Origin: an uncultured Clostridia bacterium
GTDB lineage: Bacteria; Bacillota; Clostridia; Christensenellales; UBA3700
NCBI GenBank assembly: GCA_945872615.1
Contig: CAMBZZ010000001.1
Span: 90,701 to 154,700 of the forward strand
Direction: 5' to 3'
DNA length: 64,000 bases
Shown here: one piece after another, positions 8,510 to 62,153 of the stretch
How positions within the stretch are numbered: the stretch's first letter is position 1
How the letters are laid out: each line of letters opens with the position of its first letter
Made by a program: the position numbers and the translations under genes
The notes under the pieces: generated by a model
The model's database searches: none
Seen by the model: the letters and a program-made list of their open reading frames with translations, nothing else
Told to the model about the DNA's origin: nothing

Positions 8510-9583
8510 ATGAAAAATAAAGTTATCTCGAGCATTATTTTACTTTTAATTTGTTTGTCAATTATTTTTTTTAATTGTCAGATAATCGCCGAAGAAAATC
8601 CACAATCCTATATTTTAGAATATGCCGAAGAGTTTGTGAAAGGTTATGATTTAGAAGTTGCTGCCATAATACCTATTTACGATTTATATAATAATATTAT
8701 ACGGTATTGCGTTACATACAATAAAGATTCAAAAGAATTTGGTTATATTATTTTAGATAGTATTATCTCAAAAGGAAAAGCCCAACTAATAGAGTTTGCT
8801 TTTAATTGCAATAGTATAATTAAACCTAATAGAAAAAATGTATTAATTAACATAATGGAATATGGACAACAACGAGGTGAATTTATCGAAGTGGGTAATA
8901 GAGCGTTTTATTTATCTATGCTAAAAAAATATTTAGCAAACGATTCTGCGAATAGTATTTATGATGGCTACTTGGATATTGACATTAATTTAAATGATAT
9001 TTTAAATGGGCAATTGCAATTAGTTCCATATGCATTTACATTTAGACCATTTATTCAGGAGGACTTAGCCACAACATCACAAATAGATGATGGAATTTGC
9101 GGAGCAACTACCGCTATGAATGTATTGAAATATTATTATGATTCAGGTGAGGAGAAATATGACGACCTTTTCTATCAAAATGCTGACTATTCAATAAATG
9201 TAAATCAAACATATAATATTTTGAGATCATATCAATCTTCTTCTAATCCTTATAATATAGAAGATCAAGATAAAAGAAAAACTGCACTCAATAATTATAT
9301 TAAGAATAAAACCACTCTTAATGTTACAATAGTTAAATATTTATTTACAACTTGGACGTTTTTTTACAATGACATAAAAAATGGAAAATTAGTTGATGTT
9401 AGATATTCATATATGGATGCAGGACATGCAGTGTTAGCAATCGGTGCAGCAGTAGTCAAACCCGATATTTATCCTTTTGGCACAAAATTTTTATGTGTTG
9501 CAGATACTTGGAATTATAATGTTAGATGGTTGAATTATGATTATCACGATAATGTTAAAGGAATGAGTATTAATGTCTATTAA
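8510..9583 (+). CDS. Secreted papain-fold cysteine peptidase, C39-like (Peptidase_C39_2-like)
   Basis: 357 aa with an N-terminal signal/TM segment (KVISSIILLLICLSIIFF). Candidate catalytic Cys in DDGICGATTAMNVLKYYY, His in DAGHAVLAIGAAVV, and Asp/Asn in VADTWN. The gene is strongly AT-rich compared with its neighbours. Confidence 0.55.
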   Translation: MKNKVISSIILLLICLSIIFFNCQIIAEENPQSYILEYAEEFVKGYDLEVAAIIPIYDLYNNIIRYCVTYNKDSKEFGYIILDSIISKGKAQLIEFAFNCNSIIKPNRKNVLINIMEYGQQRGEFIEVGNRAFYLSMLKKYLANDSANSIYDGYLDIDINLNDILNGQLQLVPYAFTFRPFIQEDLATTSQIDDGICGATTAMNVLKYYYDSGEEKYDDLFYQNADYSINVNQTYNILRSYQSSSNPYNIEDQDKRKTALNNYIKNKTTLNVTIVKYLFTTWTFFYNDIKNGKLVDVRYSYMDAGHAVLAIGAAVVKPDIYPFGTKFLCVADTWNYNVRWLNYDYHDNVKGMSINVY

Positions 9584-9615
9584 ATTAGTATAAAAAATAT
9601 AGAGGTATATTTATT

Positions 9616-10032
9616 ATGAGAAAGGAAATGATAATTATTTGTATTCTATTTATAATATTAATAGTATTGGCGAGCATATTAATTTACAATGTAGCAACCC
9701 ACCCCCCAATCGACAAAATAGTAGAGTTGGACGGCATAGAAAAAGTGCAAGTCACCATTTCTTCTTGTTCCCCCAACGATAATATCCAATTCCAACTTTC
9801 TTCTAACGACGTCCAACTATTCGTTGCAATATTGCAATCTAGCCAAGTCAAAGCGTGTGGCAATCCTCACCTTGACGGTGGTGTCTACCGTATCAACCTC
9901 ATAGGCGCGCAAAAGGAACAATCCATCTCCATTTTAGGTCAATATATGATACTCGGCGGCAAATACTACCGCATCGGGGACGCTGCCCACACGTTGCTCA
10001 GTTCTTGCCTACAAGACATGCTTGCGCAATAA
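9616..10032 (+). CDS. Hypothetical membrane-anchored protein, paralog 1
   Basis: 138 aa with an AGAGG RBS and one N-terminal TM helix. The C-terminal two-thirds are identical to the ORF at 10605-11021. Confidence 0.7.
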   Translation: MRKEMIIICILFIILIVLASILIYNVATHPPIDKIVELDGIEKVQVTISSCSPNDNIQFQLSSNDVQLFVAILQSSQVKACGNPHLDGGVYRINLIGAQKEQSISILGQYMILGGKYYRIGDAAHTLLSSCLQDMLAQ

Positions 10033-10094
10033 TCGCACAAATCCAACGTCATTACTTTTACGTCATGCGGTGTATCGTAGACAATAGTTGTGGC

Positions 10095-10432
10095 GTCATT
10101 GTGCTGTGTACGTTTAGCATTAGCAAAGATATTACTTGCAATACTGTGGCAATCTCGTGTATCTTGTCATTCCGAGGACATTTATGTCCGTGGGAATCTC
10201 ATCCCTAGGGGATTATTCCAATCTCTCCTCCTTCTACTCGCACCTTTGCCGTCAAAAGGTTGTATGTCATTCCGCTGTGTACGTTTTGCATTAGCAAAGG
10301 CTATAAATAGCCACGGCAATCTCAATCCTATTAAATTCCTCCTTCGTGCAAATTAAGGTGGCGTGGCTATGCCGAGACGGAGAGATTGCTTATGTCATTG
10401 TGAGCGAGCAAGGCAAGTTTGGCTCTCTCAAC
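10095..10432 (+). repeat. Hairpin-repeat array A (5 units of the GTCATT...AATCTC family and associated modules)
   Basis: Units at 10095-10156, 10166-10201, 10266-10324, 10338-10389 and 10394-10432. Inner palindromes are GGACATttATGTCC (10176-10189) and GGCTATaaATAGCC (10299-10312). Confidence 0.85.
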
Positions 10433-10604
10433 ACCCCCTCCCCAAAGCAGTAGAATATGATACGATAAATCAAAAAAATAAAAAATAATATTGCTGTAAC
10501 AAAATGACGATTTTTTGTACCTTTATAGTAGAAAGAGTAATAATCAAAACGAATAATCAAAGTAATATGAAAACGAAATAATACAATTCGCGAGGTATCT
10601 TATT

Positions 10605-11021
10605 ATGAAAAAATCAACCGTTATCGTTAGTCTTTTGGCAATAGTTACGATAGTTTTGGCAAGTATATTGCTATACGGCGTCGCAACCCACCCCCCAATC
10701 GACAAACTAGTAGAGTTGGACGGCATAGAAAAAGTGCAAGTCACCCTTTTTTCTTGTTCCCCCGACGATAATATCCAATTCCAACTTTCTTCTACCGACG
10801 TCCAACTATTCGTTGCAATATTGCAATCTAGCCAAGTCAAAGCGTGTGGCAATCCTCACCTTGACGGTGGTGTCTACCGTATCAACCTCATAGGCGCGCA
10901 AAAGGAACAATCCATCTCCATTTTAGGTCAATATATGATACTCGGCGGCAAATACTACCGCATCGGGGACGCTGCCCACACGTTGCTCAGTTCTTGCCTA
11001 CAAGACATGCTTGCGCAATAA
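10605..11021 (+). CDS. Hypothetical membrane-anchored protein, paralog 2
   Basis: 138 aa with a GAGGT RBS and an N-terminal TM helix. Paralog of the ORF at 9616-10032. Confidence 0.7.
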   Translation: MKKSTVIVSLLAIVTIVLASILLYGVATHPPIDKLVELDGIEKVQVTLFSCSPDDNIQFQLSSTDVQLFVAILQSSQVKACGNPHLDGGVYRINLIGAQKEQSISILGQYMILGGKYYRIGDAAHTLLSSCLQDMLAQ

Positions 11022-11083
11022 TCGCACAAATCCAACGTCATTACTTTTACGTCATGCGGTGTATCGTAGACAATAGTTGTGGC

Positions 11084-11552
11084 GTCATTGTGCTGTGTAC
11101 GTTTAGCATTAGCAAAGATATTACTTGCAATACTGTGGCAATCTCGTGTATCTTGTCATTCCGAGGACATTTATGTCCGTGGGAATCTCATCCCTAGGGG
11201 ATTATTCCAATCTCTCCTCCTTCTACTCGCACCTTTGCCGTCAAAAGGTTGTATGTCATTCCGCTGTGTATGTTTTGCATTAGCAAAGGCTATAAATAGC
11301 CGCGGCAATCTCAATCCATATAAAAAGCCGTCCCTGTGCAAGGGAAGGGGGACCACCGTAGGTGGTGGAAGGGTTGTCTTACTCGTACCTATGCCGTCAA
11401 AAAGAATTATGTCATTCCGAGCCTTACTCGTAAGGCGTGGGAATCTCAACCTTATAAAAAGCCTCCTTTGTGTAAAGGGAGGCGTCAACGCAGTTGATGG
11501 AGGGATTGCTTGTGTCATTGCGGTGGAGCGAAGCGGAACCCCACAATCTCAC
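11084..11552 (+). repeat. Hairpin-repeat array B (7 units; the first three duplicate array A)
   Basis: Units at 11084-11145, 11155-11190, 11255-11313, 11328-11377, 11410-11449, 11461-11510 and 11514-11552. Same terminal motifs as array A. Confidence 0.85.
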
Positions 11553-11876: not shown

Positions 11877-12344
11877 TTACAAGCGACTGATGAGACAACC
11901 TTCGTGCTCCTCGATCAACTCTTGCCACTTTTCATCGGTCATACACAGCGCCTTGATGCCCCAATACAGCCCGAATATCGAAGGGATACCCGTCCAACAA
12001 AAGAGCAAACTAAACACAAACCCCAGTATATTGCCTCTAAGTAGGTCGTGCGCGCCAAAGCCCCCCAGAAATATCGACAACACTCCGAATATTATCCTTT
12101 GTCTTTCCGCCGACTTTGACGACAATTTTTCCTTGGCATTGTCGATTTTTTCGCTTATCCTCTCGCCCACGTCTCCAAAGTCGAACGTCGCCTTATTGCC
12201 GCCCACGGTAAACTCCGCTTTGGGCGAATTCTTTTTTAGTTTATACCTCGTGTGGCAATACTCGCACTCGATGACGTTATTTGGCAAAACGATAAATTGA
12301 TTGGCACCGCAATTTTCGCATTTGTACTTAACTTGATTTTCCAT
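11877..12344 (-). CDS. Zinc-ribbon plus TM2-domain membrane protein
   Basis: 155 aa. N-terminal CENCG...CEYCH ribbon. The C-terminal segment FLGGFGAHDLLRGN...GIPSIFGLYWGI resembles a TM2 domain. Confidence 0.6.
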   Translation of the reverse strand: MENQVKYKCENCGANQFIVLPNNVIECEYCHTRYKLKKNSPKAEFTVGGNKATFDFGDVGERISEKIDNAKEKLSSKSAERQRIIFGVLSIFLGGFGAHDLLRGNILGFVFSLLFCWTGIPSIFGLYWGIKALCMTDEKWQELIEEHEGCLISRL

Positions 12345-12347
12345 GAC

Positions 12348-13424
12348 TTACCCCGCAAAAAACCTATACGCTATATAAGCAAGTCCCAATATAACCGCAC
12401 CGACGAAGATGCAAAAGCTTGCAATTTTTGGTGCAGATTTTGGATATTTTCCCGTCACGACGCCCGTTCTACCATTGACGTAATCGTTGTACTGCTTTTT
12501 GTTGTAATGATAACTTACAAGCCAAATCGGCACGAATATGTACTTATACTTTTTGTCTGCGTAGGTCGGATTTATCTTGACGTAATCCAACACGTCATAG
12601 TTATACTTGCTTTTTACAACTTCTTGTAGGTCGTCGTTGATAACGCCCGTGGCTTTATTCCAACACTCGTCGAGTCCCGTGCTATATCTCTCGCCTTGAT
12701 AGCCCGCCAAAAATTGCGAATGATACCCGCAAGAGTTTTTAGAGTCGAAGCCTCCCATGCCGTAGAGGTCCTTTTGCTCTATCATTTTGCTAGCCTCTAT
12801 TTGAATATCGTCGTAGGCGCGAGCGACGAAACCGCTATCCACGTACCATCTCGTTTTTTGCACGGTACGCCTATTTTTTCCGCTACCCACGGTGACGTAA
12901 TAGTGCTGACCGTATCTAATGGTATAAGGCGTACTTGCTTTGCAATCGAAGGTAAAAACGGGCAAATAAATTCCGCTCACGTCCTCTTTTTTGTTGTTTT
13001 TCTTAAACTTACTCGGAGCAAAGAGTTTTTTCTTTATCCAAGTCTTAAAGTTTTGTACCGCCGTCTCTTTAGCAACGCCGAACGGCAGAATTCCCGTAGG
13101 CTTGAGCCCCGGCAACTCGTCGGCAGATACGACGTTGTTGGCACCGCAAAACGGACAATTACCCGTCATATCATACTCGTTGAGTACGGTGACGGCGCCA
13201 CAACTTTTACATTTTACGCACTTTACATCGCCCCACGTTTCAAAGCCTTGCTCGCTGTTGTCGTCGTAGGCAATCTCAATGGCGTTGCCTACCGCCTCTA
13301 GGTCGTATTCAGAAGAGCAATGGTCACACTTAAGTTTTTTACTCGTAGGGTCGTAGTGCAAAAAGTTTCCGCAACTCTTGCATTTATAGGTGCGTGAGGT
13401 TATCGTTTTATTCTCTTCTTCCAT
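12348..13424 (-). CDS. Double zinc-ribbon membrane protein, YdjG-like
   Basis: 358 aa with CKSCG...CDHCS and CKSCG...CPFCG ribbons and a C-terminal TM helix. Its ATG overlaps the upstream stop (TAATG). Confidence 0.55.
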   Translation of the reverse strand: MEEENKTITSRTYKCKSCGNFLHYDPTSKKLKCDHCSSEYDLEAVGNAIEIAYDDNSEQGFETWGDVKCVKCKSCGAVTVLNEYDMTGNCPFCGANNVVSADELPGLKPTGILPFGVAKETAVQNFKTWIKKKLFAPSKFKKNNKKEDVSGIYLPVFTFDCKASTPYTIRYGQHYYVTVGSGKNRRTVQKTRWYVDSGFVARAYDDIQIEASKMIEQKDLYGMGGFDSKNSCGYHSQFLAGYQGERYSTGLDECWNKATGVINDDLQEVVKSKYNYDVLDYVKINPTYADKKYKYIFVPIWLVSYHYNKKQYNDYVNGRTGVVTGKYPKSAPKIASFCIFVGAVILGLAYIAYRFFAG

Positions 13425-14548
13425 TACAGTTTTTCACCACATTCAGGGCAGAACTTTGCTCCCGCTTTGACGTCGGCGCCGCACTTAGGGCATTTTACGC
13501 TACCGAGGCTCGCGCCGCACTCAGGGCAAAACTTGGCACCCTTTTTGACTGCCGTTCCGCACTTAGGGCATTTTTGAGTGCTTTCCATACTCTTGCCGCA
13601 CTCAGGGCAGAACTTAGAGCCCTTTTTGACCTTAGCGCCGCAGTTAGGACAAGTATCCTTAGCTTCCACGTCGGCGGTGCCGTTTGCGATACTGCTCATA
13701 CCGTCGGCAAAAACCTTGCCCACGCCGAGACCCGCGCCGAGACCGATACCAGCGCCTGCCAATCCTCCAGGATTTTTTGCGGCGGATTTCATTGCCTCGA
13801 TACTCTCCATCTGAGCGTATCCTTGCATAGCTCCGTTCATCACGCCCACGGAGGTACGCTTATCCATCATCTTCTCCACTTCTTCAGGCAAGGAGAGATT
13901 TTCGATAAAGAGAGCCTTGATTTCTATACCGATTTTGTCAAACTCTTCTTGCAGTTTGACCTTAGCCATATCGGTGATTTCGTCGTAATGCATAGCAAGG
14001 TCGAGCGCAGCCACTTTAGACTCCGCGATGACGTTGCTAAGAGTAGACGTGATAATCTTTTTGAAGTATTCGTCAACGTTTTTGACGGTGAGCTCGCCCA
14101 TCGAGCCAAAGAGTTCGTTCATAGCTTGAGTAGGCGTACCCACGGCAAAAGAATAGGTACCGAAGCCTCTCACTCTAATCATTCCGAAATCGTTGTCTCT
14201 CATCATCACGGGGTTAGATGTGCCCCACTTGTTGTTGATAAACTGCTTGGTGGAGATAAAGTACACGTCACCCGTGTATGGGCTTTCCCAAGCATACTTC
14301 CAACTATTGAGCGAAGTAAGGATTGGGATATTGCGCACGTCGCTTAGTTCGTATGTACCGGGACCGAATACGTCGGCAAGTTTACCCTCTTGGATAAATA
14401 GAGCCTTTTGTCCCTCTCTCACCACAAGTTGAGATTTTTTCATAATCTCTTCTTTTCTCTCAAGCGGATACTTCCACACGATAGTATTAGGATTATCGTT
14501 TTCCCATTGTATTACTTTTCTAAATTGTCTTTTTAGCCATCCAGCCAT
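13424..14548 (-). CDS. SPFH/band-7 domain protein with three C-terminal zinc ribbons (YdjI / COG4260-like)
   Basis: 374 aa with an SPFH-like core and a Gly-rich linker. The C-terminus carries three copies of CP(N/K)CG-x10-CPECG. Confidence 0.7.
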   Translation of the reverse strand: MAGWLKRQFRKVIQWENDNPNTIVWKYPLERKEEIMKKSQLVVREGQKALFIQEGKLADVFGPGTYELSDVRNIPILTSLNSWKYAWESPYTGDVYFISTKQFINNKWGTSNPVMMRDNDFGMIRVRGFGTYSFAVGTPTQAMNELFGSMGELTVKNVDEYFKKIITSTLSNVIAESKVAALDLAMHYDEITDMAKVKLQEEFDKIGIEIKALFIENLSLPEEVEKMMDKRTSVGVMNGAMQGYAQMESIEAMKSAAKNPGGLAGAGIGLGAGLGVGKVFADGMSSIANGTADVEAKDTCPNCGAKVKKGSKFCPECGKSMESTQKCPKCGTAVKKGAKFCPECGASLGSVKCPKCGADVKAGAKFCPECGEKL

Positions 14549-14673
14549 ATTTTTCTCCTCAACGCGCCTCTTGCCTCGCTTCTTTGAATAATGAACGTCA
14601 AAGCTATCCGAATAGTTGATGCCTTCATCGTCGCTAGCACGGCTTATCGCACGTTTATAAATTATCTTTTATT

Positions 14674-14702
14674 ATTATAATTCTATTTTTTCGCTCCGTC
14701 AA
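14674..14702 (-). promoter_or_regulatory. Candidate sigma-70-type promoter of the SPFH operon
   Basis: Minus strand reads TTGACG (14702-14697), a 17-nt spacer, then TATAAT (14679-14674). It lies about 120 nt upstream of the ATG at 14548. Confidence 0.6.
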
Positions 14703-14873: not shown

Positions 14874-14972
14874 ATGACTAAGAACAAGATGCAAAACAAG
14901 GCTACCAAAGGCTGCAAATGCAAAGCCGAAAGTACCGAAAAGAATTGCAAATGCACCAAAAGCAACGACTAA
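14874..14972 (+). CDS. Small Cys/Lys-rich peptide (32 aa), not in the ORF track
   Basis: AGGAGG at 14861-14866 lies 7 nt before the ATG. The product is MTKNKMQNKATKGCKCKAESTEKNCKCTKSND. A hairpin terminator follows at 15023-15060. Confidence 0.55.
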   Translation: MTKNKMQNKATKGCKCKAESTEKNCKCTKSND

Positions 14973-15022
14973 TGACGTTGCCTATATCGTCTAAATGACG
15001 ACTGACCACCTGATAAGTGGTA

Positions 15023-15060
15023 ATGAGGAGAGAAGACGACTTTTCTCCTCATTTTTATTT
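15023..15060 (+). terminator. Intrinsic terminator
   Basis: Stem ATGAGGAGAGAA/TTTTCTCCTCAT with a 6-nt loop, followed by TTTTATTT. Confidence 0.7.
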
Positions 15061-15075
15061 ATCTCGAAATATCAA

Positions 15076-15636
15076 CGCCCCACCTCGCACCTATTCCGTG
15101 AGAGTAACACAATATGTCGTAAGCAAAATAGGTGGCAAGACGGAGGGATAGTCCTATTACGTCATTGCGGTGGAGCGTAGCGTAACTTGGCAATCTCGTC
15201 ATCTTGTCATTCCGCTGTGTACATTTTGCGACAGCAAAGGACATTTATGTCCGTGGGAATCTCATCCCCCTTTGCAGCCTCCTTTGTGCAAAGGGAGGTG
15301 TCCGACGAAAGTCGGACGGAGGGATTGTTTTTTCATTGCGTTGCGTACGTTTTACATTTGCAAAGTGAGTAAAGCGACTGTGGCAATCTCAAGTAGTAAT
15401 GTCATTGCGAAGCCGTTAGGCTGTGGCAATCTCAATCAACAATATCATTGCCCCCAGTGCATTTTGCGTTAGCAAAGTAAGCAAAGCGAACGCGGCAATC
15501 TCAACCGCTTAAAAGCCGCCCCTGTGCAAGGGGAGGGGGACCACTGTAGGCGGTGGAAGGGTTGTCCACTTTTGTCATTACGGTGGAGCGTAACATTGTT
15601 ATGTCATTCCGTTGTGTACATTGGGAATCTCTATCC
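15076..15636 (+). repeat. Hairpin-repeat array C (about 10 units, the largest array)
   Basis: Class-1 units at 15161-15197, 15207-15264, 15333-15391, 15400-15434, 15444-15504, 15574-15593 (truncated) and 15603-15632. Class-2 units at 15277-15327 and 15515-15565. Confidence 0.85.
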
Positions 15637-60079: not shown

Positions 60080-60568
60080 TTATTTTTTGCGTTTTTTGCA
60101 TACGGGCTGTCCAAAAACCTCGCCCAAAACTATGCTCTTAGCGAGCTTTTTGTACTTGTCCTCGCCCAATATCTCAACCGCTATGCTCTTGTGCTTGACG
60201 TTGCAGTCTTGCTCGTGTCTATCTTGCATCTCCTTGTCGTAGTCCTTGGTCTTGGACTTGAGCGTAGGTTGCATTACGGTGAGATTGGTTTGATGCTGAG
60301 CCGTGGAGGTCGACTTGTTCGCCGTTGCATTATTTGTGCTTTTGGTCTTTTTGTTTGGTTGGCTCGACTTGGCGGGCTTAGCAACCTTGCGAGGTGCCAC
60401 GTTGCTATATTCTAACCCGAACACATCGTTTTGATTCTCTCCCGCTACGCTTGGTCGCGTAGGCTCGTTGCCGTTTCTTCTTTTGGCTTTGACCTTGGAC
60501 TGTACAATGCTAACCCCGACGAACAAAATCGTCAGAAGCATTAGCATTGCAATCGAATATCCTGCCAT
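60080..60568 (-). CDS. Membrane-anchored low-complexity protein in the YqfB position
   Basis: 162 aa with an N-terminal TM helix and a Lys/Ser/Thr/Asn-rich region. The start overlaps the floA stop. The call rests on synteny with nfeD-floA-yqfB only. Confidence 0.5.
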   Translation of the reverse strand: MAGYSIAMLMLLTILFVGVSIVQSKVKAKRRNGNEPTRPSVAGENQNDVFGLEYSNVAPRKVAKPAKSSQPNKKTKSTNNATANKSTSTAQHQTNLTVMQPTLKSKTKDYDKEMQDRHEQDCNVKHKSIAVEILGEDKYKKLAKSIVLGEVFGQPVCKKRKK

Positions 60569-61584
60569 TATTCTTTGTCTCCGTCGGCATTGCCGCTAAT
60601 TGCGTTGCGCATTGCCGTATCGGATTGCAAGTTTTGAAGATTGTAGTAGTCCATTACTCCGAGTTTGCCCTCGCTGAGCGCCTTTGCCATTGCCTTAGGC
60701 ACTTCGGCTTCCGCCTCGATAACCAACGCTTTCATCTCTTGAGTTTTGGCTCTCATCTCTTGCTCCAAAGCCACAGCCATGGCTCTACGCTCTTCGGCTT
60801 TAGCCTCAGCAATCCTCTTGTCGGCTTCGGCTTGGTCCATCTGCAACTGTGCACCGATGTTTCTGCCTACGTCGATGTCTGCTATATCGATAGATAAAAT
60901 CTCGTAAGCGGTACCGCTGTCAAGTCCTTTGCCAAGCACCGTCTTGGAGATAAGGTCCGGATTCTCGAGCACTTCTTTGTGCGAGCCCGCGCTACCTACC
61001 GTGGTAACGATACCTTCACCGATACGGGCAATAATCGTATCTTCGCCCGCACCACCGATAAGACGGGTGATGTTGGCTCTTACCGTAACTCTTGCTTTTA
61101 CTCTAAGTTCGATACCGTCCTTGGCGATTGCCGCTATAGCAGGCGTCTCGATGACCTTAGGGTTGACCGACACCTTGACTGCGTTGAGTACGTCACGACC
61201 CGCAAGGTCTATGGCGCGCGCCGTCTCCGGCTCGAGTACTATGTTGGCGCTGTGAGCGCTGATGAGTGCATTGACGACCTTGGTTACGTCACCCTTAGCG
61301 AGCACGTGGCTCTCCAATTCGTTGATAGACAAATCAAGTCCTGCCTTTTTGGCTGAGATAAAGGCGTCTACAACTTGGTTGACCTTGATACCTCTCCACT
61401 TCATACCGATAAGTCTTGCCATTGATATTTTGACGCCCGATACCAACGCCCTAAACCAAATACGGATAGGCAATACCGTAAACACTATGGCGATAAGAAT
61501 CAACAGCACTACTACCGCGATTACTATACCGACGATTGATCCCGCGTCAAGCGGCGCACACAAAAGTGTCATAATAAAATCCAT
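60568..61584 (-). CDS. floA: Flotillin-like protein FloA (UPF0365/YqfA)
   Basis: 338 aa with an N-terminal TM helix and an SPFH core. The motifs [14 protein letters not shown] and [10 protein letters not shown] are typical of FloA. Confidence 0.85.
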
Positions 61585-62153
61585 TATTCCGTCTCCTTGT
61601 TTTTGTATTCTCTAACTACGATTCTCACGCCCTCTACCTCGATGACCTCCACAAGTTGGTCTTTGTCAATAAAGTCGGCTTGAGAAACGACGTCGTACTT
61701 TTTGCCTTCTATCTCCACCGTGCCGCTAGGTCTGAGTGCGGTAAGAGTGGTGCCTCTTTGTCCTATCAAAAAGCTAAAATCGCTAGTGCCTTTGCTGTAA
61801 TCTTTGGACACCGCAGTGCCGTTTTCGACAAAAGCCGTGCGAGACAGCCAACCCATCTTGATAGAAATAAGCATAATCGCCAGCGCTATCAGTAGTATCA
61901 GCGCCACGACGCCCACCATAACTATCAACTGTATGATAGGATTGCCCGCTCCGCTATAATACATTCTTACGGCGATGCCCACCGCTACCAGTATGCCGCC
62001 GCAAATGCCGAAAAAGCCGAATCCCGGTTGGAATATCTCAACAATAATAAATATCAGACCCAAAATAATGCAAATGGCAGGTATCCACCCTATCTCGGTA
62101 AAAACCAAAGCCACTTCTTGCCAAAAGGTCAAACCTTGCGCTAAAATAGCCAT
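61584..62153 (-). CDS. nfeD: NfeD-family membrane protein
   Basis: 189 aa with about four TM helices and a C-terminal OB-like segment ([18 protein letters not shown]). Lies upstream of floA, with start/stop overlap. Confidence 0.8.

Follow-up and report, generated by a model that had tools for sequence, protein, structure and literature searches.

A probable SPFH membrane-scaffold module of the YdjI/YdjG type, without a linked pspA, in an uncultured Clostridia bacterium

The ydjGHI (samGHI) genes of Bacillus subtilis make up a bacterial SPFH system that, unlike most, has been studied genetically, and it has so far been viewed mainly through its link to PspA. Can its SPFH protein and the zinc-ribbon protein encoded beside it exist as a unit of their own? 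The question is raised by a locus in a 64,000-nucleotide (64-kb) stretch of DNA, hereafter the window, from an uncultured gut Clostridia bacterium of the Christensenellales (UBA3700; contig CAMBZZ010000001.1 of assembly GCA_945872615.1, positions 90,701 to 154,700 of the forward strand). A preliminary description, made from the letters of the window, had pointed there to three translationally coupled genes as a ydjGHI-like membrane module lacking pspA. Here we present evidence that the locus is probably a four-gene operon encoding a cytoplasm-facing SPFH membrane-scaffold module of the YdjI/YdjG (SamI/SamG) type, with no linked PspA and no TPM-domain YdjH. The module comprises the following features (window coordinates, strand, description):

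13424-14548, minus strand: G1, 374 residues; SPFH protein of the Band_7_1 / YdjI (SamI) family with three C-terminal zinc ribbons
12348-13424, minus strand: G2, 358 residues; YdjG/SamG family, tail-anchored, with two N-terminal ribbons
11877-12344, minus strand: G3, 155 residues; ribbon, disordered linker, TM2 two-helix hairpin and short C-terminal helix
11611-11817, minus strand: DUF1858 / TIGR03980 gene, 68 residues, CxxC motif
14674-14702, minus strand: promoter-like site TTGACG-17-TATAAT of sigma-A type, about 125 nt 5' of the G1 start codon
11564-11585, minus strand: terminator-like hairpin of the intrinsic type followed by a T-run, closing the four-gene unit
13437-13655, minus strand: ribbon-coding tandem repeats of 78/81 nt inside G1 (repeat family D3)

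The three open reading frames (ORFs) first described are real on the minus strand and tightly coupled: the stop codon of G1 and the start codon of G2 overlap in TAATG, and a gap of 3 nt separates the G2 stop from the G3 start. Each of the three proteins carries at least one zinc ribbon, as had been noted (three, two and one). The unit does not close with them: 59 nt past G3 comes a DUF1858 gene with its own ribosome-binding site (RBS), which had escaped notice. No terminator-like site lies in the intergenic gaps from G1 to the DUF1858 stop codon, and the hairpin 3' of the DUF1858 gene is the sole good one on the minus strand of the region. At the other end, TTGACG-17-TATAAT is the top promoter match of the region (11/12 positions), and its -35 element ATATTGAC and -10 element TATAAT are invariant across the upstream regions of six aligned relatives. 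Read from these signals, the transcription unit is one of four genes (G1, G2, G3 and DUF1858) with a predicted promoter and a predicted terminator at its two ends.

As the reference for B. subtilis proteins we used a ydj locus of the B. subtilis group (L082), a metagenome contig that contains the published forward primer for ydjG without a mismatch and whose four ORFs agree with the published primer-derived termini of pspA, ydjG, ydjH and ydjI. G1 matches the reference YdjI over its full length, C-terminal ribbon included (BLASTP 1e-29, residues 4-321 against 3-322; phmmer 3.3e-33). Its SPFH domain at residues 24-235 covers the whole profile (1-210) of the Pfam family Band_7_1 (PF13421) with an E-value of 5.9e-74 and 248.7 bits against a cut-off of 24. 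Three CxxC-x10-CxxC ribbons occupy residues 300-370, where DZR and Zn_Ribbon_1 score over their cut-offs; the three tandem ribbons of the preliminary description are thus there, and its spacing formula, CPxCG-x10-CPECG, needs the trivial correction that nine residues follow the G and ten separate the CxxC pairs. In the DNA, the ribbons appear as three copies of 60 nt with 75-80% identity, spaced by 78 and 81 nt. G1 has no transmembrane segment, its maximum 19-residue Kyte-Doolittle hydropathy being 1.45 against a threshold of 1.6. Searches of the PDB by fold and by sequence gave no significant match for Band_7_1, and the SPFH homolog search yielded close relatives only, without reaching B. subtilis YdjI.

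Between the SPFH domain and the ribbons of G1 lies a Gly-rich, Gly-zipper-like hydrophobic linker, GGLAGAGIGLGAGLGVGKVF (13700-13790, residues ~258-285). With a hydropathy slightly under the transmembrane threshold, the linker could bind the membrane peripherally. A similar linker is also seen in the Band_7_1 protein of locus L088, to which we return with G3.

G2 passes the cut-off of no Pfam or NCBIfam family. It has the two ribbons (C15/C18-C33/C36 and C72/C75-C90/C93, all eight cysteines invariant) and the single C-terminal transmembrane helix (approximately residues 330-358) that had been described. Against the reference YdjG it aligns over 357 columns with 24% identity (BLASTP 1e-38, residues 12-358 against 4-340), and the G2 family profile matches YdjG with an hhalign probability of 100% (E 4.7e-47). 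The AlphaFold2 (AF2) model, built on a 20-sequence alignment (predicted local distance difference test, pLDDT, 87.8; predicted template-modelling score, pTM, 0.80), shows both ribbons, a beta-rich domain that includes a very long hairpin (strands 148-179 and 186-210), and a helix at the C-terminus (331-357). This architecture agrees with the published description of YdjG, in which an uncharacterised NTF2-like domain is combined with two ribbons and a transmembrane segment (bioRxiv 10.1101/2020.09.24.301986). The BLASTP and hhalign matches therefore place G1 and G2 in the YdjI and YdjG families, and by sequence comparison both are full-length homologs of these proteins. The likeness to ydjGHI claimed at the outset holds for these two; G3, as shown below, is not a counterpart of YdjH by descent.

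At its tip the G2 hairpin bears the motif VGSGKN, which is invariant and reads on as VGSGKNRR in the protein of the window. GSGKN was also considered as a P-loop (Walker-A) motif, a reading that we rejected since position -5 is not a G and the residues form the tip of a beta-hairpin. For the central domain, the best Foldseek match in the PDB has an E-value of 0.05, and sequence searches of the PDB returned the ribbons only. The sole significant fold matches of the G2 model are two giant-virus proteins in BFVD (E 7e-10 and 6e-8), from Yasminevirus and Edafosvirus and labelled 'DnaJ-like subfamily C member 3'; from these two models, a YdjG-type domain may also occur in nucleocytoplasmic large DNA viruses.

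How far does the pairing of G1 and G2 extend? Scanning one genome per species for G2 relatives with the motif TVGSGKN[RK][RH] gave 382 genomes, and all neighbourhood counts reported here refer to the best 80 loci of these, analysed by ORF calling and phmmer. They come mostly from Christensenellales and other Clostridia, together with some Bacilli or Mollicutes-like metagenome-assembled genomes. An SPFH gene is present in 71 of the 80 loci, mostly adjacent to the YdjG-like gene, upstream and on the same strand, and in two of the nine remaining loci the contig leaves no upstream room; the neighbourhood check that the preliminary description had proposed thus finds the two genes co-conserved. Other neighbours are unconserved across lineages, and when the neighbours were clustered no other recurring membrane partner emerged. 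The SPFH-YdjG-like pair forms the conserved core. The SPFH homologs carry either three ribbons (40/70) or two (30/70), three being the rule in the Christensenellales-type arrangement whether G3 is present or absent. A one-to-one pairing of the three G1 ribbons with the two of G2 and the one of G3 was rejected, because 30 of the 31 S-G-d-group loci without G3 also have three ribbons.

Does the module nevertheless serve PspA? In B. subtilis, PspA foci need YdjI, YdjG and YdjH (PMC8581546), and the locus could likewise be a membrane receptor for a PspA/LiaH (ESCRT-III-like) effector, with pspA elsewhere in the genome. Ravi et al. suggested that abbreviated Band-7 operons may act with PspA homologs encoded elsewhere (bioRxiv 10.1101/2020.09.24.301986), and our search covered 64 kb of the window genome and 8 kb on either side of each relative. 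Within that range, phmmer with the B. subtilis-group PspA found no homolog at E < 0.01 among the ORFs of the window or around any of the 80 loci, and no TPM homolog was found either (0/80); the absence of an adjacent pspA or liaH noted at first sight is thus borne out well beyond the operon. PspA's conserved partner in B. subtilis is the TPM protein YdjH (bioRxiv 10.1101/2020.09.24.301986), which is absent here, and SamGHI has PspA-independent phenotypes (bioRxiv 10.64898/2026.02.06.704340).

Expression signals bear on the same point. A sigma-W promoter drives pspA-ydjGHI in B. subtilis (PMC8581546). When stress control of the sigma-W or extracytoplasmic-function (ECF) kind was looked for at the window operon, the sole signal at sequence level was the conserved sigma-A-like TTGAC-17-TATAAT promoter. 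The G1 operon promoter is thus predicted to be of the housekeeping sigma-A type and not of the sigma-W type, and expression looks constitutive, from a promoter that does not look to be of a stress type. Taken with the gene content of the window and of the 8 kb on either side of the 80 loci, this makes a receptor for a PspA encoded elsewhere unlikely.

The conserved promoter is separated from the G1 start by a leader of about 125 nt (14549-14673, minus strand), which the window shares with L002-L004 and which L083 and L084 lack. A structured RNA in this 5' untranslated region or in the flanking repeats was considered and dropped, with no Rfam family matching at E <= 0.1.

We now turn to G3, which stands where a membrane partner would be expected. 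It carries a ribbon (C9/C12-C27/C30) and the TM2-like domain that had been proposed, PF05154 scoring barely over its cut-off (29.6 against 27.9 bits). Two transmembrane helices (84-102 and 105-127) leave both ends predicted cytoplasmic, and the AF2 model consists of the ribbon, a disordered linker (38-74), a hairpin of two helices (pLDDT 82-86) and, at the C-terminus, a short helix. The reference YdjH matches TPM_phosphatase (PF04536) at 3.1e-23; G3 has no TPM match, and BLASTP between G3 and YdjH gives an E-value of 14. On these comparisons G3 and YdjH are not homologous. The ribbon of G3 matches the first ribbon of YdjG in type (hhalign probability 95%, E 2.9e-8).

Could G3, the DUF1858 gene or both be unrelated passengers beside the SPFH-YdjG pair? 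G3 occurs in the four closest species loci only and is absent from the other 76 of the 80, and it diverges to 33-46% identity where G2 holds 57-58%. Yet its start lies 3 nt past the G2 stop, its ribbon is of the YdjG type, and its nearest homologs, P0244 (46%), P0246 (33%) and P0253, all stand in the context SPFH, YdjG-like, ribbon-TM2, DUF1858, with flanking genes also as in the window for P0244 and P0246. From this identical four-gene context we infer that G3 has been kept across the subclade even as its sequence changed much faster than those of G1 and G2.

A word-based search for homologs of G3 gave just 3 clusters. An exhaustive HMMER search, which retrieved 1112 TM2 proteins at E <= 1e-3, revealed a wider ribbon-TM2 family, about 25 of the top 150 TM2 matches being full-length ribbon-TM2 proteins of 135-155 residues. 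P0249 and P0251 each close an operon of another kind, following a Band_7_1-GYF_2 gene and a gene for a 240-residue multi-transmembrane protein; P0247 adjoins a Band_7_1-GYF_2 gene and a gene for a GYF_2 protein; P0274 and P0329 have no Band_7_1 neighbour; and the contexts of P0259 and P0297 are uninformative. A ribbon-TM2 gene is thus linked to a Band_7_1 gene in 3 of the 5 informative, independent (unrelated) contexts, which speaks against its being a passenger. We conclude that G3 is a genuine, lineage-specific membrane partner, an analogue of YdjH by position and not a homologue. The preliminary description had named, as the finding that would count against it, partners unrelated to YdjG and YdjH and not co-conserved with the SPFH gene. 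G2 is related and co-conserved; G3 is unrelated to YdjH, yet it is co-conserved locally and has analogues beside other Band_7_1 genes.

The contexts just mentioned define a second type of SPFH operon (L088, 3143-5435; L092, 1353-3631; L097, 835-3345). There the Band_7_1 protein is a fusion with a GYF_2 domain at its C-terminus and with poly-Pro tracts, the middle gene encodes the 240-residue multi-transmembrane protein (four transmembrane segments by sequence reading) or a GYF_2 protein, a ribbon-TM2 gene follows, and a YdjG-like gene is absent.

The fourth gene shows a much broader link to the pair. Its product passes both PF08984 (2.9e-16, 59.8 bits against a cut-off of 32.2) and TIGR03980 (1.4e-22, 79.5 bits against 44.95), and has homologs solved by nuclear magnetic resonance (2k53 and 2k5e); the G[ML]HCxxC motif is retained in 62 of 62 DUF1858 copies. 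Of the 80 loci, 61 have DUF1858 next to the SPFH-YdjG-like genes, and two gene orders occur. The YdjG-like gene comes before DUF1858 in 36 loci; in the other 25, DUF1858 is placed between the SPFH gene and the YdjG-like gene or immediately 5' of the latter, five of these 25 being DUF1858-YdjG pairs with no SPFH gene nearby. Its own RBS, the 59-nt gap with a promoter-like match in it, and its annotation elsewhere as hybrid-cluster-protein-associated would all fit a passenger. However, it tracks the pair through both gene orders, or accompanies the YdjG-like gene alone, where all other neighbours differ. With the evidence for G3 added, we consider it improbable that either gene merely happens to lie here.

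Of the remaining explanations, an anti-phage defence or toxin-like module, in which the G2 beta-hairpin would be a membrane-perforating effector restrained by the SPFH protein, can be dismissed as highly improbable: the modelled hairpin does have some 30 residues per strand, and its best PDB Foldseek matches, none of them significant, are pore forms of beta-barrel toxins, but these have E >= 0.05 and TM-scores <= 0.12 and were rejected as artefacts of the long hairpin, its tip (GSGKNRR) is basic and polar and not amphipathic, the search for a defence system with PADLOC was negative (no significant match; the G3 ribbon to PDC-S64 at E 0.0014 and 15.6 bits, and none for G1, G2 or DUF1858), and in the Christensenellales-type relatives examined the locus lies near the S10 ribosomal operon and not in a defence island.

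How, then, might a PspA-free scaffold of the YdjI/YdjG type work? Soluble YdjI of B. subtilis reaches the membrane only with YdjG and YdjH (PMC8581546). By analogy, the tail-anchored G2 would draw oligomers of G1 to the membrane's inner face, and G3 may be a second anchor in this subclade, standing in for YdjH while unrelated to it by descent. SamI restrains SamGH signalling, a phenotype for which PspA is dispensable (PMC8581546; bioRxiv 10.64898/2026.02.06.704340), and the complex studied here could, by the same analogy, be a device for envelope stress or homeostasis that organises or monitors a patch of membrane. All of its domain mass is predicted to be cytoplasmic, so the module does without the extracytoplasmic TPM domain that YdjH supplies. 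With no sizeable extracytoplasmic domain in any component, sensing, if it occurs, would take place at the inner leaflet or in the cytoplasm.

Several points weigh against this picture. The two-hybrid contact of YdjI in B. subtilis is YdjH and not YdjG (PMC8581546), and a direct contact between G1 and G2 is therefore suggested by the conserved pairing only. At 24-25%, the identity with the B. subtilis proteins is low, and B. subtilis YdjG is without the stretch of about 10 residues at the hairpin tip, so that functions may have diverged. The DUF1858 signal comes in part from related Christensenellales genomes that share synteny, and pspA could be encoded beyond the 64-kb window.

A bolder proposal would tie the four genes together, and we put it forward as doubtful. 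Soluble Band_7_1 scaffolds may use zinc-ribbon membrane receptors that have so far gone unrecognised as a set (tail-anchored YdjG-type proteins and small ribbon-TM2 proteins); in anaerobic Clostridia these would be free of PspA and coupled to the DUF1858 CxxC protein, with membrane assembly governed by the thiol/zinc redox state of about 26 cysteines. The tie between the DUF1858 CxxC and the 24 ribbon cysteines, by thiol or zinc redox chemistry, is a guess. We know of no function in bacteria for either DUF1858 or ribbon-TM2, and the proposal, if true, would be the first to assign a cellular role to DUF1858 and to the TM2 domain of bacteria.

The YdjI-YdjG pair emerges as a self-standing and widely conserved unit, with a G2-type YdjG relative encoded in at least 382 species genomes. 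Since the pair exists without PspA or TPM, two pairs, PspA-TPM and SPFH-YdjG, may have been merged in the B. subtilis operon. As families YdjI and YdjG, with their ribbons, were already known (bioRxiv 10.1101/2020.09.24.301986); in the literature searched we found no account of an SPFH-YdjG pair lacking PspA and TPM as a widespread unit. Ribbon-TM2 and DUF1858 are nominated as two new and testable partners in organisms, the abundant gut Christensenellales, that are mostly uncultured.

The surroundings of the module are more variable. Divergently to it, at 14874-14972 (plus strand), lies a Lys/Cys-rich ORF of 32 residues, MTKNKMQNKATKGCKCKAESTEKNCKCTKSND, with a strong RBS by sequence reading and a terminator-like hairpin 3' of it (15022-15053, plus strand). 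L083-L087 have a called Lys/Asn-rich gene of 31-36 residues at the same position and in the same orientation, that of L084 being dissimilar in sequence. Short dispersed repeats (D2, D4, D5 and D6; 40-96 nt, 71-100% identity) lie on both sides of the module at 10235-11486 and 15205-15566, give rise to spurious ORFs and match nothing in Rfam; they may be elements like the repetitive extragenic palindromic (REP) or miniature inverted-repeat transposable element (MITE) kinds. Downstream of the operon, a 989-bp tandem duplication (9611-11021) contains two ORFs of 138 residues (9616-10032 and 10605-11021) whose N-terminal membrane anchors differ and whose C-terminal halves are identical, neither with a Pfam match. 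The segment 8001-10000 has a low GC content (0.31 against ~0.45) and includes a secreted-looking ORF of 357 residues (8510-9583), also without a Pfam match. The stretch from the DUF1858 gene to rpsJ varies between relatives, spanning about 700 bp in L083 and holding a 1438-residue Peptidase_M64 / Flg_new_2 protein in L084, and looks like an insertion hot-spot.

Set beside pspA-ydjGHI, the window operon shares an SPFH protein of Band_7_1 type with a C-terminal ribbon and no transmembrane segment of its own (G1, YdjI/SamI), and next to it the gene for a two-ribbon partner with a beta-rich domain and a C-terminal transmembrane helix (G2, YdjG/SamG). It differs in having neither pspA nor the TPM-domain ydjH, in its reversed gene order with the SPFH gene first, in three ribbons on the SPFH protein where YdjI has one, in the VGSGKN (VGSGKNRR) insertion at the hairpin tip of the YdjG homolog, in the added ribbon-TM2 and DUF1858 CxxC proteins, in a promoter of apparent sigma-A instead of sigma-W type, and in the predicted lack of an extracytoplasmic domain in any component.

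With TM2 proteins (PF05154), G3 shares the two-helix hairpin and the conserved CWT-IP...G-I motif, and its ribbon-TM2 layout is common to many proteins of ~135-155 residues. To our knowledge no function has been assigned to bacterial TM2 proteins, and the literature searched gave none; nor did it contain an account of the recurrent operon link between Band_7_1 SPFH and ribbon-TM2 genes seen here. DUF1858/TIGR03980 is named the 'hybrid cluster protein-associated redox disulfide domain'. The window protein passes both models and keeps the CxxC, but it is linked to the SPFH-YdjG pair and not to a hybrid-cluster protein, a context and a conserved partnership of which we found no account in the literature searched.

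The window also encodes a second SPFH system, the canonical nfeD-floA already recognised at 60568-62153, with NfeD at 61584-62153 and FloA at 60568-61584 (PF12127, 3e-150). The module resembles NfeD-FloA, NfeD-stomatin (QmcA-YbbJ) and HflK/C-FtsH in that an SPFH oligomer is encoded with a dedicated membrane partner. FloA, stomatin and HflK/C are self-anchored by a transmembrane segment or hairpin of their own and are partnered by NfeD or FtsH, whereas G1 is predicted to be soluble and has as its partners membrane proteins with zinc ribbons that are not related to NfeD.

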